Below are positions 20,897 to 30,961 of a stretch of DNA of 64,000 nucleotides, piece by piece. The stretch lies in contig OZ024743.1 of NCBI GenBank assembly GCA_964016885.1, positions 285,820,001-285,884,000 of the forward strand, read 5' to 3'. Numbering within the stretch: the first letter of the stretch is position 1; each line of letters starts with the position of its first letter. The DNA comes from Eledone cirrhosa. Lineage: Eukaryota. The notes under the pieces are model-generated. The model had not been told where the DNA came from. It worked only from the letters and a program-made list of their open reading frames with translations, and did no database searches. The position numbers and the translations under genes are program-made.

Positions 20897-21159
20897 GTTT
20901 CTTTTATTTGCCACTAGGGCATCAAAAGTGGGACAAGTACAAAGGGGGGAGTTTACACAAAAAGGCGTCCTCAATAAGGAGGAGGCAATAACAAAATATA
21001 AAAATAAAATAAGATATAACAAAAAATAAAATTTTTAACAAAATCCTCAATAGAGAGGAGGCGCCTTGGGGGGTCGCACACACCCCCGAAAAAAGTGTGC
21101 AACCCTTTTCCTCAGGAGCACAGAGAGGGGGTGCTCCCTCGTTCCTTCCTCTTTCCCAC

Positions 21160-24100
21160 CTACAGGCTTATGTAAAGAGAAGGCCCATTCACACGGGCCA
21201 TTCTCGCCACTTTCACCCACCTTTCATAAAAACGACTGGGGTGCAGCACCTCTCTCTCCATCCTGATCCTTCTTCCGAAATGATATCGGAAGAAACGGAC
21301 CAGTTGTTGGCCAGAGAGAAAGGCGCCCGACCTCAGTCCTTTCAGACGCGTCCACCATACAACCTCTTTCGCCATGGCTATTACGCACAGAAACACCGCC
21401 TCTGCTTCATCTTTGAAGGGGGGAGGCGGCTTGATCATTACAATAGACTCGGTGGTCAACCGGATCGGTCCCACCCTTGACAGCAGTTGTTCGACATAGC
21501 CCCACAGATCGGCTACGCCCGAGCAGTGTACCAATGCGTGTGCAACGGTTTCCTCGTCGCACACGCATCTGGGACAGATCTTTTTGGCGGGGTCCCTACC
21601 CGGGCGCCCGTGTCTGTAGAGCCTTTCTCGAACGGGTAAAGCCCCTCGGTAGCACTGCCAGGCCAGGGACTTCTGGAAGTTGTCCATAGGTCCCGGGCTG
21701 AATGTCCTACCGAACAGGCTGGCCAGTTCGTCCTCCTCCATGTCTAGGGCTTCTCCGAGGGCGTCGTCGCACCTGCTGCGTACCAGCCCTCTATAGAATG
21801 TTGCGGTGGAGTCTCCACTGATAACCGGATCCGCCTGCCAGAGGGCGGTGAGCGCCTGGGCACACTCAGTGTGCCAGGCGCCCAGTTTTCTCGGTCTTTG
21901 CTTGACCCAGGATTGCAGTTCGGTGAGTGAGACGAGTCTGGGAAAGGTTCGTCTCACAAACGAGGCCCACACCGGTTGTCCGGTGAGGAATACGTAGAGG
22001 TGCCGTAGCCTTAATGCGTGTTTACGCATCATTAGCCACGGCATCCCCAGCCCTCCTTTCGAAGGGTGTTGACAGCAGATGGATCTCCTCACCATAGGAG
22101 CCCGTCCCTTCCAAAGGAATTGGAAGAGCGCGCGCTCCATCTTGGTGAGGGTTTCCCTTGGGCAGGGCACTACGGTCAGGCGGTAGTAGATGACGGACGC
22201 TATATAAGTGTTCGCCACCTCCGCCCGACCTTTCAGGGATAGTTTGCAACTGGCCCACTTCTGGGTCAGTGCAAACACCCTGTTCGTAACCTCCGCCCAG
22301 TTTTTCTCCACCTGGAGGTCCGGTCCGAACCAGACCCCGAGCAACTTCACCGGGCCCTTCGTCCAGCGTCCGACGACGCCATCGGAGGGCATCGGTCTGC
22401 CCCTCCACGTGCCGAGTTGCAAACCGATCGACTTGTCCCGGTTCAGCTTAGCCCCTGTGAACTTTTCGTACTCCTCCAGTAAGGTGCCGACCGCCTCGAT
22501 TTCGGAGGCCGTCGACACCATTACTGTCACATCATCGGCGTAGGCTGACACCGCTTTCCGCAATCCCGGTTCCAAAGGGATGCCCTGCAACAACTCCAAC
22601 TTCCGCAGTAGTGGCTCGAGAGTCAACACATACAGAAGGGAGGAGAGAGGGCACCCTTGTCGGATGGACCGCGCGATTTTGAACGGCTCCGAGAGGTAGC
22701 CGTTCACCTTGACCCTAGAGCAGATGCGGCTGCTGTGCATAGCAGTGATCCAGCCCCTGAAAACGGGTCCGAAGCCTGCCGCCGCTAGCACCGCATCCAG
22801 GTAACCATGGTCGACCCTATCGAACGCCTTAGATTGATCCAAGTTGATCAGAGCCCCACCAAAGCCGGGTTCGTTCCCAACCCTCTCTATGATGTATCGC
22901 ATGAGGTGGAGGTTGTCATGGATGGACCTGGACGGGATAGCGCATGTCTGCGCATCTCCCACCAGGTTGCCCACGACAAGCGCCAACCTCTTTGCTAGCA
23001 CCTTGGCCAAAATCTGTAACTCTGTATTTAGCAGAGTTATGGGCCTGAAGTTACTTATTTCGTCCCCCTTGTTCTCGTCCTTCCTCACTAGCGTGACTAC
23101 GCCCTTGGTCACAGTACAGGGAATTCTCCCGTTCTGTTGCCAGTTGCAGTAGACCGCCTCGAGGAGATCGGGGAACAAGTCCGGCATAGCTAGATATAAT
23201 TCGTAAGGAAGACCATCGAGACCCGGGGATTTGCGTTTGCCGCATTGGCCCAGCACGTCCTCTATCTCAGCGGCCGAAATCGGCTCCTCGCAAGACTTCG
23301 CCTCCCTGTCCGAGAGGCGCGGCAGGCCGTCGAGGTATGGACCGAAGTCCACGTTTCCAACCGGCTCCCCGCCCCTCCCGAATAGTCGGGCAAAGTGCCT
23401 TTGAAAGGCCTCACACATCTGCTTAGGCTCAAGAATCGCCCGTCCATCCAGGTCTCGCAAAGACCGGATGGTGGATTTAGTTCCACTGTTGGCCTCTGTC
23501 ACGCGGGCCCAGCTAACAGCTTTGGCCCCCTCGTTCCCTAGAGCACGTATTTTACTTCGGACAACGCAGCCTTCGTGCTTCGCGTCGAAAAACTGGCTCA
23601 AAGCCGTTCTCGACGCTAGCACTCTGGCCACGTCGCCGCTTCTAATTGCCTCTTCTACTCTATCTATTAGCTCCCTTTCCTTCCTATTCCTATCCGCAGC
23701 TAGAACCTTACTAAATTCAATCGAGACTACTCTAATCTCTCTCTTTAGAGATACCCACCACCTGCTGTTGACGATCGCTCCAGTCAACCGTTCCTTAACT
23801 AACGTACTAATCCGATTCCTGTAGGCTCTACTTGCCGGCAAGGACAAGTTGAGCTTCCAGTAACCGGGGCCCTGTCTATGAGTTCTGTCAAGGTTGACCA
23901 TGCAGGTCACCAACTTGTGGTCTGAATAGCCAACCATGAGCATTTCTGGACAACTTAAAAAGTCCCTGTCCTTATTTCTAACTAAAAATCTATCTAGGTA
24001 TGATCTAGATGATCCGCTGCGATTTGACCAAGACCAGGTTGGCACCGTCGGAAAATCTAGTCGAAATCTATCGGCCAGGTCAAATCGGCCGAGTAACCCC

Positions 24101-24598
24101 TTGAGGCTGTTGCACCCCTCTCTATCGGGACATGCCCCTGCATAGTCCCAACGTGCATCCAGGATACCATTCCAATCCCCCACTAAAAGCAGGGAACGGG
24201 ACGTCCCTAGAAAAGACTCCAGACGCTGGAAAAAGTCGGGCCGCTCTGTCCCAAAAGGGGCATATGCGGCTATCAGCCTAAGGGCTCTACCTTCACCACT
24301 GCCAAGGTCCAGCACCACCAGTCGACCCCCTGGGTCCAAGTGAACTATCTGTGTTGCAAGGCCCATATGTTTTTGCAGAAAGAACGACAACCCCACCCCC
24401 ACCTCCGGGCTGACAGAGAGATGCGTGCATCTCAAAGTCGTCAAAGGTGGGGGCTAGCTGTCGCATGCTGCTGATCCGGGCCTCGCAGATAACCATCACA
24501 TTTATAGATTGTGACCTGAGGTCATTTAGAAGCATTGCTTGCTTCCAAGACGAGCCCAGGCCACGCGCATTTAGACACCCTACTCTTAGCACAGCCAT
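21160..24598 (-). CDS. Element 1 ORF2: APE endonuclease + reverse transcriptase + zf-RVT; one frameshift near 24380
   Basis: MAVLRVGCLNARGL start, GDWN, YLDRF, SDH, GYWKLN, SPGLDG, FRPITLLN, QGCPLS, YADD, CPRC..ETVAHALVHC. Confidence 0.9.
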
Positions 24599-24622
24599 GT
24601 TGGTGGTAAAGAGAAAAGGCAC

Positions 24623-26272
24623 TTACCTCTCTGCGTCCCGGGAAACGGGCCGCTCAATTTCCATGCTGGTTGGGGATGGGTTGTTGGGTGGGGTGGTGGT
24701 TTGTGGAAGTGAAGGGGCATCGGTGTGTTGTGGGGTTGGGGTGTTTGTGGTTGAGTGGGTGTCTGGGTGGGGTGGGGTGGGGGTGAAATTTTTTAGGAGG
24801 ACGCGGTTGATTGGTTTGGCGCAGGGGGGGCCCACGTCCTCCGTGAAATTTATTTTCAGTGTTTTGTACAAGTGCATTGGGACTTTTATCATTTTCAAAT
24901 GAGGTAGTCCCACAGCAGTTATAAAGTTTGGCCCTTCAGTTTGGACCGAAGGGTTTGCTGAAATTGTTTTCCGTAATTCTTTGTTGTCTGTGTTCATGTA
25001 TGTGTATTGTAAGGTCTTTTTTTGTGTAGCAGTTAGTGTTGTGTGACAGGGAGGGGTGGTTTGTGTGTAGTTTGTGTTCTCTTGGGGGGGGGGGGTTAAA
25101 GTTAACATGTGTGTCTGTGGTGCGTCTCCTCTTCTTTCTTTTTACTTGTTGGAAGGGATCTTTTTCGTCTTGCGACGAAAGAGGTTCGTCTTCCTTGTTG
25201 GGTGGGAGGGGTATGTTTTCTGGTAGTGTTTGCGGTGTGCGTGTTTTTGTATTTGTTTTGGGTGGGGAGGGATTGGGTGGGACAGTATTCTGTGTTATTT
25301 TTTCACGTGTTTGTTTTTGTTGTTGTTGTGGTGGTGGTGGTGGGGTTGTTGGTTTTTGTTGTTGTTGTGGTTGTTTTTGTTGTTGTAGTTGGGGTGGTGT
25401 TGGTGTTGGTAGCAGTGTTTTTTTCTGTGTGAGCTGGGGACAGGCAGCCCTCAGGTGACCTCTATTGCCACAGAGGTAACAGGAGGGACGCCTACCCTCC
25501 ACAATAATGTTGAGGTGGGTACGGTCATCCAGCATGACGCGCTCAGGGATTTGAGCGATGCGTTCTGGCCTTATTTGGGTCAGAACTTCGAGGCTCGTTC
25601 CACTGAACGCGTCGCCGGATGCCTTCCCTATTGAGATGAGGTTGTCCTCGTCTAAATTGAGGAAACCGGTTAGTAACCACCAGTAGTTTATGTTTGGGGT
25701 GATGGTGGTTATCCATATCCTCTGGGTTTTTTTACCCATGTAGGTGGGGAAGAAGGTGTAGTGTGTGGACCGAATTGGCGACACAGAGTATTTTTTTGCC
25801 GCCAATTCGTCTTTCATCAATATGGATAAACTCCCATAGAGTTTATCCTTTTGTATGAAAGTGATGTCTCTCATCGCGTCTTTCAAGACTAACTGAGTTT
25901 CCGCTTGAGATGGTTGCGCTGGTTTCTTTGTTTTATTTAAAATTGTTCGGAATACGACAGTTCGTAATTCCGTCTGTCTTTTTAGCTCCGGAGGTGAATG
26001 TATAGAAAACGATCCGTTTTCGCCAAAAGACACATATTTCTTGGCTTTTTCCAGCATTTCTTTTGCTTTTGAAATATCTTCCAGCACATAAGCGACTGAT
26101 AATTTAGCCGTTTGTGCAAAAGATATTTTGTTTTCGTTTTGGATATTAGTATTGTTTTGTTTCTCGTCGTTTGAGTTGTTTTCATCTTTGTTGTTGTTGT
26201 TGTCTTTCTCGTTTCGTGTGTGGATACTTGTGACGTTTGTGTTGTTGTTGTTTTTGTTGTCTTTATTGTTGC

Positions 26273-26480: not shown

Positions 26481-26703
26481 TTTTCTCAAAATAGGGTTTT
26501 TCGAAGTTTTTCGAAAGATAAAATGTTCACAATACTATTTCGCCCAAAGGCGCAGAATATTTTGAGAGACCGACCAGATCAAAATTTGACCTGGCAGTCC
26601 CTCTACAAAATGGTACAAAAATGAAAGTTTACAGTTTACAATTTCCGTATGAATTTAAACAAAAACTTACCGAGCGAGCTCAGCACATGTGTCCATCGTA
26701 ATG

Positions 26704-26838
<135 letters not shown>

Positions 26839-27052
26839 TTCTTTATTTACCATAAAGGCATAAAAAGAAGGGACAAATACAAAGGGGGAGTTTACATATA
26901 ATCGAGTAAAAAGGGTGTAACATGAAAATAATCGAAAATAACCTCAAAAGGGAGGGGACGTGATGGGGGTTGCACACACCCCCGAAAAAGTGTGCAATCC
27001 TTTGCCCGGGGAGCACATGGAGAAGGTGCTCCCCTCTCCTTTACTTCTTTAC

Positions 27053-30000
27053 CTACAGGATGGTATACAGAGAAGGCCCATTTACACGAGCCATTCTCGC
27101 CACTATCACCCACCTTTCATAAAACTGCCTGTGGCCAAGCACCTCTCTCTCCATTCTTATCCTTCTTCCGAAGTGATATCGGAAGAAGTAGACCAGACTA
27201 TGGCCAGAGAGGAAGTTGCCTGACCTCAGACCTTTCAATCGTGTCCACTAAACAACCTCTTTCAACATGGCTATTACGCACAGAAAAACCGCCTTTGCTT
27301 CCTTTGTGAAGAGGGGAGGCGGTTTGATTGTCATCACGGACTCGGCGGTCAATTTAATCGGCGCCACCCGCGACAGCAGTTGTTCGGCGTAGCCCCACAG
27401 ATCAGCCACGCCAGGACATTGCACCAATGCGTGCGCCACGGTTTCTTCGTGACGCACGCATCTAGGGCAAATCTTTTTTGAGGGATCCCTGCCCGGGCGC
27501 CCGTGTCTGTAGAGCCTCTCTCGAACGGGTAGAGCCCCCCGGTAGCACTGCCAGGCCAGTGACTTCTGGAAGTTGTCCATTGGTCCTGGGCCGAAAGTCC
27601 TACCGAACAGGCTGGCCAGTTCGTCTTCTTCCATGTCCAGCGACTCTCCAAGGGTGTCATCGCCCCTGCTAGCCACCAGCCCTCTATAGAATGATGAGGT
27701 GGATTCTCCACCGATGGCCCGGCCCGCTTGCCAGAGAGCCCTGAGCGCCTGAGCACACTCAGTGTGCCAGTCTCCCAGTTTTCCGGATCTTTGCTTGACC
27801 CAGGACTGTAGCTCGGTGAGTGAGACGAGTCTCGGAAAGGCTCGTTTCACGAACGGAGCCCACACCGGTTGACCAGTGAGGAATACCTGTAGGTGCCGTA
27901 GCCTTAATGCGTGCCTACGCATCATCAACCACGGCATCCCCAGCCCTCCTTTCGAAGGTTGTTGGCAGCAGATGGATCTTCTCACCATAGGAGGACGCTT
28001 CTTCCAAAGAAATTGGAAGAGCATGCGTTCCATGGTGGTGAGTGTTTCCTTAGGGCAAGGCACGACAGTCAGGCGGTAGTAAGTGACGGACGCTATGTAA
28101 ATGTTCGCCACCTCCGCCCGGCCTTTTAGGGACAGCTTACACTTGGCCCATTTCTGGGTTAGTGCAAACACCTTGTTCGTAACCTCGTTCCAGTTCTTTT
28201 CCACCTGGAGGTCCGGTCCAAACCAGACCCCAAGCAACTTTACCGGGCCCTCCGTCCAGTGTCCGACGACACCGTCAGGAGGCATCGGTTTGCCTCTCCA
28301 CGTTCCGAGTTGCAGCCCGATGGATTTTTCCCGGTTCAGTTTCGCTCCTGACAACCTTTCGTACTCCTCCAGTAAGGTACCGATCGCCTCGATCTCCGAG
28401 TCGGTTGATACCATTACTGTTACGTCATCGGCGTAGGCCGACACCGCTTTGCTCAATCCTGGTTCCAGAGGGATACCCTGCAACAACTCCAACTTCCTCA
28501 GTAAAGGCTCGAGAGTCAATACGTACAGAAGGGAGGAGAGAGGGCACCCCTGTCGAATGGATCGTGTGATTTCGAACGGCTTCGAAAGGTAGCCGTTCAC
28601 CTTGATCCTAGAACAGATGTGGTTGCTATGTAGGGCAGTGATCCAGCCTCTGAAAACAGGACCGAACCCAGCCGCCGCTAGCACCGCATCCAGGTAACCA
28701 TGGTCGACCCTATCGAAGGCCTTAGACTGATCCAAGTTGATCAGGGCCCCACCGAAGCCGGGTTTGTTGCCAACCCTCTCTATGATGTATCGCATGAGGT
28801 GGAGGTTATCGTGAATGGACCTGGATGGGATAGCACATGTCTGCGCATCTCCCACCAGGCCACCCACGACAAGCGCCAACCTCTTTGCTAACACCTTGGC
28901 CAAAATCTTTAACTCTGTGTTTAGCAGGGTTATGGGCCGAAAATTATTTATACTATCCCCCTTGTTCTCGTCCTTCCTCACCAGCGTGACTACGCCCTTG
29001 GCTACAGAACAAGGAATTCTCCCGTTCTGCTGCCAATTGCAGTAGACCGCTTCGAGGAGTTCGGAGAAGAAGACCGGCATTGCTAAATAAAGTTCGTAAG
29101 GTATACCATCGAGACCTGGAGATTTGCGTCTGCTGCATTGGCTCAGCGCATCTCCGATCTCATCAGCCGAGATTGGTCCCTCGCAGGACTCTGCCTCTTT
29201 GTTCGAGAGACGCGGCAGGCCGTCGAGGTATGGACCGAAATCCACGCCCCGGCCCGGACCCTCGCCTCCCCCGAACAATCGGGCAAAGTGCTTTTGAAAG
29301 GCCTCGCACATCTGCTTAGGCTCCCGGATCACTCGTCCATCTTCGTCTTGTAACGACCGGATGGTGGATCGATTTCCACTTTTAGCTTCTGTCACGCGGG
29401 CCCATCCAACGGCTTTGGCCCCCTCATTACCTAGAGCACGTATTTTACTTCGAATGACGCAGCCTTCATGCTTTGCATCGAAAAACTGGTTCAAGGCCGT
29501 CCTCGATGCCAGCACTCTGGCCACATCTTCGCTCTTGATTGCCTCTTCTAATTTACCTGTTAATTCTTTCTCGTTTCTATTCCTATTGGCAGCTAACATC
29601 TTGCTATAACTTATTGATTCTGTTCTAATCTCTCTTTTGAGAGATGCCCACCATCGGTTGTTGACGATTGCACCCGTCAACCTCTCCTTAACTAATCTGC
29701 TAATCCGGTTTCTGTAAGTCTCTTTTGCCGGTAAAGACAAATTAAGTTTCCAGTAACCGGGACCCTGTCTATGTGTTTTCTCGAGATTGACCACGCAGGT
29801 CACTAATTTGTGATCCGTGTAGCCAACCGTGCGCATTTCTGGACAGCTTAATATGTCCCTATCCTTACTTCTAACTAAGAATCTATCTAAGTACGATCTA
29901 GATTGACCACTGTGGTTTCTCCAAGTCCAGGTAGGCACAGTTGGAAAATCTAGTCGATATCTATCGACCAAGTTAAAACGGTCGAGTAACCCCTTGAGGC

Positions 30001-30490
30001 TGTTACACCCCCCTCTATTAGGACATGCTCCTGCATAGTCCCAACGTGCATCCAGGATGTCATTCCAATCCCCCGCTAGAAGCAGGGAACGCGACGTTCC
30101 CAGAAAAGTCTCCAAACGCTGGAAGAAGTCGGGCCGTTCAGCTCCGAAAGGGGAGTAGACGGCGACCAGTCTCAAGGCCGCACTTTCACTACTGCCAACG
30201 TCTAGCACCAACAAACGACCCTCCGGGTCCGAGTGCACAACCTGTACGGCAAGACCCAGGTGTTTTTGCAGCAGTACGACAACCCCACCCCCACCTCCAG
30301 GTTGACAGAGAGATGCATGCACCTCAAAGTCATCGAAGGTGGGGGCCAGCTGCCGCACGATGCTGATTCGAGTCTCACAGATAACCATTACATTTATACT
30401 ACATGACCTGAGGTCATTTAGAAGCTTTGCTTGCTTCCAAGTTGAGCCCAGGCCACATGCATTCAAAAATTCTACTCTTAACACATCCAT
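27053..30490 (-). CDS. Element 2 ORF2 (APE-RT-zf) with premature TAG at 27248-27250 replacing a Trp codon
   Basis: 1080-aa ORF colinear with element 1; same frame resumes to 27053 (..NGPSLYTIL*). Confidence 0.9.
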
Positions 30491-30523
30491 GTGGGCGGCA
30501 GAGCCAAAGGAGAGTGTAGAGAC

Positions 30524-30761
30524 CTACCTTTCCGCTTCCCGGGGTTCGGGTTGCACGACTTCCATGGGGTCGGGGGTGTTGGGTGAAGGGGTGTCTTGTG
30601 GTGGTGTGGGGTCGTCAGTGTGTGGTGGGGTTGGGGTGTTTGGAGTTGTGTTGGGGAGGGGAAGGGGAGGGGGAAAGCTTTTTAGTAGGACGCGGTTTAT
30701 GGGTTTGACAGAGGGTGGTCCTACGTCCTCCTTAAAATCCTTTTTTAGTTTTTGGTAGAGG
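30524..30761 (-). CDS. Element 2 ORF1 C-terminal part
   Basis: LYQKLKKDFKEDVGPPSVKPINRVLLK..EAER* homologous to element 1. Confidence 0.75.
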
Positions 30762-30961
30762 NNNNNNNNNNNNNNNNNNNNNNNNNNNNNNNNNNNNNNN
30801 NNNNNNNNNNNNNNNNNNNNNNNNNNNNNNNNNNNNNNNNNNNNNNNNNNNNNNNNNNNNNNNNNNNNNNNNNNNNNNNNNNNNNNNNNNNNNNNNNNNN
30901 NNNNNNNNNNNNNNNNNNNNNNNNNNNNNNNNNNNNNNNNNNNNNNNNNNNNNNNNNNNNN
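30762..30961. other. Assembly gap (200 N)
   Basis: Run of N. Confidence 1.

Follow-up and report, generated by a model that had tools for sequence, protein, structure and literature searches.

A conserved U1-type donor motif at the ORF1 stop and a predicted long-range stem around ORF2 in LINEs of Eledone cirrhosa

The window, a stretch of 64,000 nucleotides of contig OZ024743.1 from the 3.0 Gb genome of Eledone cirrhosa, carries on its minus strand two LINEs arranged head to tail, each terminating in (TCTA)n (Table 1). The 5' part of one of them, element 2, is removed by a 200-base N gap (window 30762-30961). On the other side of the gap lies a tandem array (window 31781-63414) of units of about 2.15 kb, every unit containing a pair of tRNA-Leu genes whose anticodons are AAG and TAG. 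The array accounts for 31 tRNA calls on the plus strand; five further tRNA-Leu calls fall on the minus strand between 10823 and 20060.

Table 1. Features of the two LINEs in the window (a slash marks the putative splice position)
Feature	Position	Strand	Remark
End of element 2 ORF1, final 78 codons and stop	30524..30761	-	remainder in N gap
5' arm of predicted stem: ORF1 end, donor, spacer, first ORF2 codons	30461..30549	-	
U1-type donor motif AG/GTAGGT over ORF1 stop	30522..30529	-	
Inter-ORF spacer, 33 nt, pyrimidine-rich	30491..30523	-	mid part of stem 5' arm
Element 2 ORF2	27053..30490	-	premature TAG at 27250-27248
Acceptor-like ORF2 end, pyrimidine run and TAG/G	27052..27076	-	predicted pairing with ORF2 start context
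3' arm of predicted stem: last ORF2 codons, stop, first 72 nt of 3' UTR	26981..27085	-	
Local 3' UTR hairpin, 9 bp, rival of the stem's outer part	27008..27034	-	predicted fold
AATAAA, 3' end of element 2	26842..26847	-	
(TCTA)n tail or target repeat separating elements 2 and 1	26704..26838	-	
GT..AG segment in element 1 5' UTR, second donor-like site	26603..26670	-	
Element 1 donor AG/GTAAGT at its ORF1 stop	24621..24628	-	
Element 1 ORF2 end and 3' arm of its predicted stem	21088..21192	-	partner 24569-24648

ORF2 of element 2 codes for an endonuclease, a reverse transcriptase and a C-terminal zinc finger, with matches to PF03372, PF00078 and, slightly below the cut-off, PF13966. Its top relative of solved structure is human L1 ORF2p (E 3e-50). 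A Pfam search of the ORF1 pieces in the window returned no match; a CCHC knuckle (Cx2Cx4Hx4C) is present in four aligned ORF1 proteins. The nearest named proteins are those of Argonauta hians (61%) and Octopus species. At full length, as in the sibling copy L046, ORF1 specifies 633 amino acids. The exact motif at the ORF1 end was found in 574 genomic copies, all 40 scored copies of the family are 99-100% identical, and ORF2 is intact in 12 of the 20 siblings that were fetched. Judged by its sequence, the family is a young LINE of the L1/Tx1 type. The copy in the window is dead, with its premature ORF2 stop and its gapped 5' part.

Among copies chosen by similarity only, a TCTA repeat precedes the element in 19 of 19 and follows it in 18 of 20. 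ATT repeats, and not TCTA, are the insertion sites of families F3, F4, F7 and F9. Head-to-tail trains formed by insertion of elements into one another's repeat tails were seen at L035, L041, L043-L046, L048, L121, L191 and L202. Two ORFs, an endonuclease, reverse transcriptase and zinc finger, insertion into simple repeats and recent activity are shared with the Tx1-clade elements Kibi and Koshi (PMC4494074) and with the L1-Tx1 families of Octopus vulgaris (PMC13282606), which differ in their targets, (TCTA)n here or ATT in the four families just named. In the passages describing these elements, neither a donor placed on the ORF1 stop nor a stem enclosing ORF2 is mentioned. Element 2 has the anatomy of a microsatellite-targeting LINE of the Tx1 type, and on this anatomy its putative clade is based.

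ORF1 of element 2 terminates with GAA AG/G TAG GT, in which 30528 is the last exon base, GT occupies 30527-30526 and the stop codon 30526-30524. ORF2 ends in ...CCTGTAG/GTAA, with TAG at 27055-27053 and the next base at 27052. The initial annotation had proposed these two motifs as splice sites (minus strand 30528 and 27052), and both are present at these coordinates. They recur in all 20 element 2 siblings fetched. Joining them on paper yields Arg and then a stop, so that the C-terminus is the same as in the unspliced protein, as had been stated. It also holds that the donor consensus is kept in element 1 even though the spacer (24 nt, against 33 nt in element 2) and the ORF1 stop (TAA, against TAG) differ.

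We surveyed 12 related families, all from one genome, with one representative copy each and belonging to two or three clades. In 12 of 12, seven of the eight positions of AG/GTARGT are invariant, with variable flanks; free variation at the donor among relatives, which the initial annotation had named as evidence against its proposal, was not what these families displayed. ORF2 was readable in eight families, with a protein identity of 70-92% and 46 of 178 fourfold sites invariant. Fourfold-site identity between families is about 50-60%, yet the donor is invariant across frameshifts. Seven families translate the motif as Arg-stop, three as Gly-Lys-stop and two as Glu-Val-Ser, and it is retained in phases 2, 1 and 0. 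The caution attached to the original proposal, that Arg-stop resembles a donor by chance, fails here because the donor is kept in the Gly-Lys-stop (phase 1) and Glu-Val-Ser (phase 0) families. It survives in F7 as well, although the ORF1 end of that family is non-homologous. In L266, a more distant relative (29%), the ORF1 stop lacks a strong donor.

Matches to U1 were scored crudely with a scheme made for the present analysis and based on the U1 consensus; acceptor scores were equally crude. In a sibling copy the donor is the best U1 match among 290 GT sites. On the sense strand of the 11 families scored it is the best match in eight, tied best in one and second in two. The antisense strand carries sites of equal U1 score, so that the argument for the donor rests on its position and conservation and not on strength alone. 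As a sequence pattern, its conservation exceeds chance and is independent of reading frame.

The other end of ORF2 is less uniform. TAG/G closes the gene in 11 of the 12 families, and in nine of the ten scored the AG at this point is, by the crude score, among the best 24 of some 250 AG sites. In F7, whose ORFs are intact, the ORF2 stop is TAA and there is no AG at it, the nearest lying 7 nt downstream (rank 73-106); this family keeps both donor and stem. Termination of ORF2 by TAA or TGA in relatives had been put forward as evidence against the splicing proposal, and it was found in this one family of 12, TAG/G being present in the other 11. Two ORF2-end fragments in the flanks of L229 and L232, outside the 12 families, also lack TAG/G; no donor could be matched to them, and they speak against a universal acceptor.

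When the donor was joined on paper to the ORF2 end in ten families, ORF1 came out identical in two, with a short changed tail in four and with 28-79 extra residues in four. Regeneration of an identical ORF1, as suggested from element 2, is consequently no general rule. Within four codons past the acceptor, 7 of 12 families have a stop in the phase set by the donor, compared with 5 of 24 for the other phases (p 0.03; the families are not independent).

Folding of the two ends of ORF2 against each other predicted a stem in all 12 families, with 54-67 pairs and about -65 to -84 kcal/mol; the window copy of element 2 has 60 predicted pairs (-71 kcal/mol) and element 1 has 62 (-85 kcal/mol). Arm energies, here and below, include no cost for closure of the 3.4 kb loop. 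Each family's own-arm energy was better than 100 of 100 shuffles. Own arms gave -72.8 kcal/mol and mixed arms -59.2 kcal/mol (permutation p 5e-5), and in 64 of 66 family pairs the own arms paired better than swapped ones, an effect that was not seen with three control window pairs. The partner of the spacer is the 37-nt stretch just past the ORF2 stop (own family -25.6, others -21.1 kcal/mol; permutation p 5e-5); taken by itself, this spacer pairing beats shuffles (p < 0.05) in nine of the 12 families and does not in three. Pairing continues on both sides, the ORF1 end meeting the hairpin region of the 3' UTR and the first ORF2 codons meeting the last. The lengths of spacer and purine tract show matched changes between families. 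The longest perfect pairing runs are 7.5 nt in own arms and 7.0 nt otherwise. In these models the arms are shown to be complementary and to co-vary between families.

The donor is covered only in part by the predicted stem in F3, F7 and F9, and the minimum-energy fold of the whole RNA holds the stem in one of the three families tried (F7, but not the element 2 family or F4). No A>G excess, as expected from A-to-I editing of a stem, was found among copies (4 singletons; 0.91 vs 1.28 per 1000).

The stem bears differently on the two motifs. Donor position +2 is mostly unpaired (probability <0.2 in 10 of 12 families), so stem pairing does not explain the donor. The ORF2 start context, on the other hand, is predicted to lie opposite the CTRTAG/G end, and the pyrimidine run, which resembles a polypyrimidine tract, opposite the purine-rich early codons of ORF2. 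The acceptor-like bases thereby acquire a second explanation, in that such a gene end can arise from base pairing instead of splicing. The acceptor would then be weaker evidence than the donor, being conserved but with stem pairing as another candidate cause. Of the conserved splice sites over the stop codons claimed in the initial annotation, the donor part stands (seven of eight positions, 12 of 12 families), whereas the acceptor part is qualified by its presence in 11 of 12 families and by this pairing.

Donor-like words also occur elsewhere in these elements. GTAAGT or GTGAGT lies about 30-75 nt from the element start in unrelated 5' UTRs, namely those of element 1 (26670-26603), L114, L192, L201, L219 and L256. 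A search for element 1 copies from which the GT..AG segment of the 5' UTR had been removed as an intron gave 0 matches, in a search run without a positive control.

Evidence for spliced products was sought in genomic copies, contigs and protein databases. An ORF1-only RNA would retain the 3' end, with the junction about 230 nt from it, so that retrocopies of it would be easily seen. A genome search for spliced retrocopies of element 2 returned 0, against 574 copies of the unspliced junction. The corresponding search for the F3/F4/F13 group gave three matches, none of them a junction, against 1023 unspliced copies, and that for the element 1 group again three matches, none a junction (on a rough scale of about 285 ORF2 starts). 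L272 (1500-1530), in which the ORF1 end is joined to ORF2 codon 5, was rejected as a deletion with GT..GA ends and 3-nt microhomology, not a GT-AG intron. Matches L207-L216 and L220 were dropped as ORF2 starts, having no fitting ORFs; they belong to a very abundant repeat without long ORFs that accounts for the majority of the first 100 among 2998 matches to the ORF2-start pattern.

When contigs of four sequencing runs (kind not recorded) were placed on the intact copy L046, none of 15 joints (out of 145) linked the donor with the ORF2 end. Around the donor, contigs of run X1 gave 20 records with three loose ends, none at the donor among 8 of the 20 records, and one contig crosses the donor unspliced. 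Run X1 may be RNA; it is a small run with three minority variants, for which position mapping is unreliable at indels. Since contigs drop rare forms, the lack of a spliced contig is no evidence of absence. No ORF1 protein of spliced type was found among 150 database matches, examined as proteins alone and with the C-terminal block viewed for nine. Gly-Lys(-Ser) forms the C-terminus of two proteins related to ORF1, P0044 (Argonauta hians) and P0041, the second of which, of 603 amino acids, fills an ENA contig of 2209 nt, about the size of an ORF1-only message. Perhaps these endings reflect a phase 1 donor in the coding sequence, a lead known from the protein alone. Splicing that removes ORF2 was not seen and may still occur.

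We tentatively favor, while giving it somewhat less than an even chance, an explanation in which the donor serves to bind U1 and protect the nascent RNA, the stem later hides it and the RNA stays mostly unspliced. U1 snRNP would bind the donor during transcription of the 3.4 kb ORF2 and, while bound, would prevent the RNA from being cleaved and polyadenylated too early. After transcription of the 3' UTR the stem would close, covering donor and terminal AG, which would block removal of ORF2 and allow full-length RNA to be finished at the terminal AATAAA, which all ten families have 3647-3722 nt past the donor. The resemblance of the ORF2 end to an acceptor would largely be a cost of its pairing with the ORF2 start, and a spliced ORF1-only RNA would be a minor branch at most. 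A weak point of U1 protection is that AATAAA occurs inside ORF2 in only four of ten families (hexamers lie in ORF1, 179-350 nt upstream, in seven of ten), so that there is little canonical downstream signal to suppress. The phase-matched stops past the acceptor (7/12 vs 5/24) likewise favor real splicing over protection and masking.

Those stops, lying within four codons, are also part of the case for ORF2 being a true spliceosomal intron, the selected product being an ORF1-only messenger as in Drosophila copia and the stem merely setting the ratio of spliced to unspliced RNA. We consider this appreciably less probable, despite the strong donor conserved in 12/12 families, TAG/G at the ORF2 end in 11/12 with its top-24 rank in 9/10, and the Gly-Lys(-Ser) endings of P0044 and P0041 with the 2209-nt contig of the latter. 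The F7 stop without an AG, the gain of 28-79 unrelated residues in 4/10 families, the predicted partnership of the acceptor-like bases with the ORF2 start, and the absence of spliced retrocopies of an RNA that would retain its 3' end all argue against it. It is accordingly with some doubt that one might picture an octopod LINE lineage using a whole ORF2 as a regulated intron, with a 60-bp start-to-stop stem across 3.4 kb choosing between full-length and spliced ORF1-only RNA. Unlikelier still, in our estimate, is that the stem is a translation device, in which the ORF2 start codon would be shut until a ribosome ending ORF1 opened it, giving few ORF2 proteins per RNA, and the donor-like word would be kept for other reasons (pairing together with stop-codon history, or a protein site). 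The ORF2 start lies exactly opposite the ORF2 stop and the stem begins at the ORF1 stop, as this would have it; in family F5, ATA replaces the ORF2 ATG in 7/7 junctions, which fits AUG-independent reinitiation; and initiation of SART1 ORF2 is described as affected by RNA structure (PMC3894237). Control of translation leaves unexplained why an unpaired GTA core still fits U1 in families of phase 0 and phase 1, which have no stop codon there, and why donor-like words stand close to the start of several unrelated 5' UTRs. It would be compatible with protection by U1, and indeed U1 binding, copia-like splicing and translational control can coexist. F5 (L201-L206, e.g. L203:2900-2940) looks young, and its ORF2 may start without AUG; the ATA bases also form the ORF1 stop of this frameshifted family.

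That motifs and complementarity are products of chance or composition (a purine against a pyrimidine run) inherited from one ancestor seems to us very improbable. The 12 families do share one genome and fall into two or three clades, 3/12 spacers by themselves fail to beat shuffles, and the longest perfect runs of own arms are barely longer than those of mixed ones. Chance does not account well for a co-variation that is specific to families in 64/66 pairs with flat controls, for spacer and purine tract lengths that change together, or for a donor held invariant across frameshifts at such low fourfold-site identity.

Comparison with known systems gives partial precedents. In Drosophila copia and Arabidopsis EVD, as in element 2, a donor closes the structural gene; the copia intron of about 3 kb spans the whole enzyme region and leaves a subgenomic Gag RNA, and U1 at the EVD donor also blocks premature termination (PMC5580714). 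These are, however, LTR elements with one ORF, in which splicing is proven and needed for the Gag stop (PMC5580714), while ORF1 of element 2 has its own stop and splicing is unseen. In foamy virus, donor-bound U1 suppresses polyadenylation and structure blocks U1 at the 3' end, which makes the proper end usable (PMC3694450). That virus is a retrovirus with two LTR copies and a local structure, whereas element 2 has a single donor, the predicted pairing partner of which lies at a distance of 3.4 kb. Together, foamy virus and EVD are precedents for a logic of U1 and structure and so support protection of the RNA by U1.

Human L1 has a conserved donor and mostly unspliced RNA as well, but its donor lies in the 5' UTR and is kept for a RUNX3 site (PMC5860796). 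It leaves spliced retrocopies (SpIREs, about 2%), unlike element 2, for which none were found; cis-preference could likewise account for their lack (PMC5860796). SART1 resembles element 2 in having a structure near the ORF1/ORF2 border, and ORF2 expression is affected by it; it differs in that stop and start overlap and the structure is downstream of them instead of having a partner at the far end of ORF2 (PMC3894237). Among the open-licence papers listed by literature searches, no LINE with a donor at the ORF1 stop and a stem around ORF2 was found. By analogy, element 2 would work like the donor control of Ty1/copia elements and foamy virus while being a member of neither.

What is new here is the survey of 12 families in three phases, the F7 counter-example with its TAA stop, and the co-variation test, which moves weight from the acceptor to the stem. 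Donor and stem appear to be real features of these sequences and fold models, with a function that is only predicted. A donor kept through three frames and a stem bracketing ORF2 exactly offer two sharp experimental handles. The arrangement bears on two open questions, namely how LINEs come to have plentiful ORF1 protein but scarce ORF2 protein, and how early cleavage is avoided in a long RNA that lacks introns.
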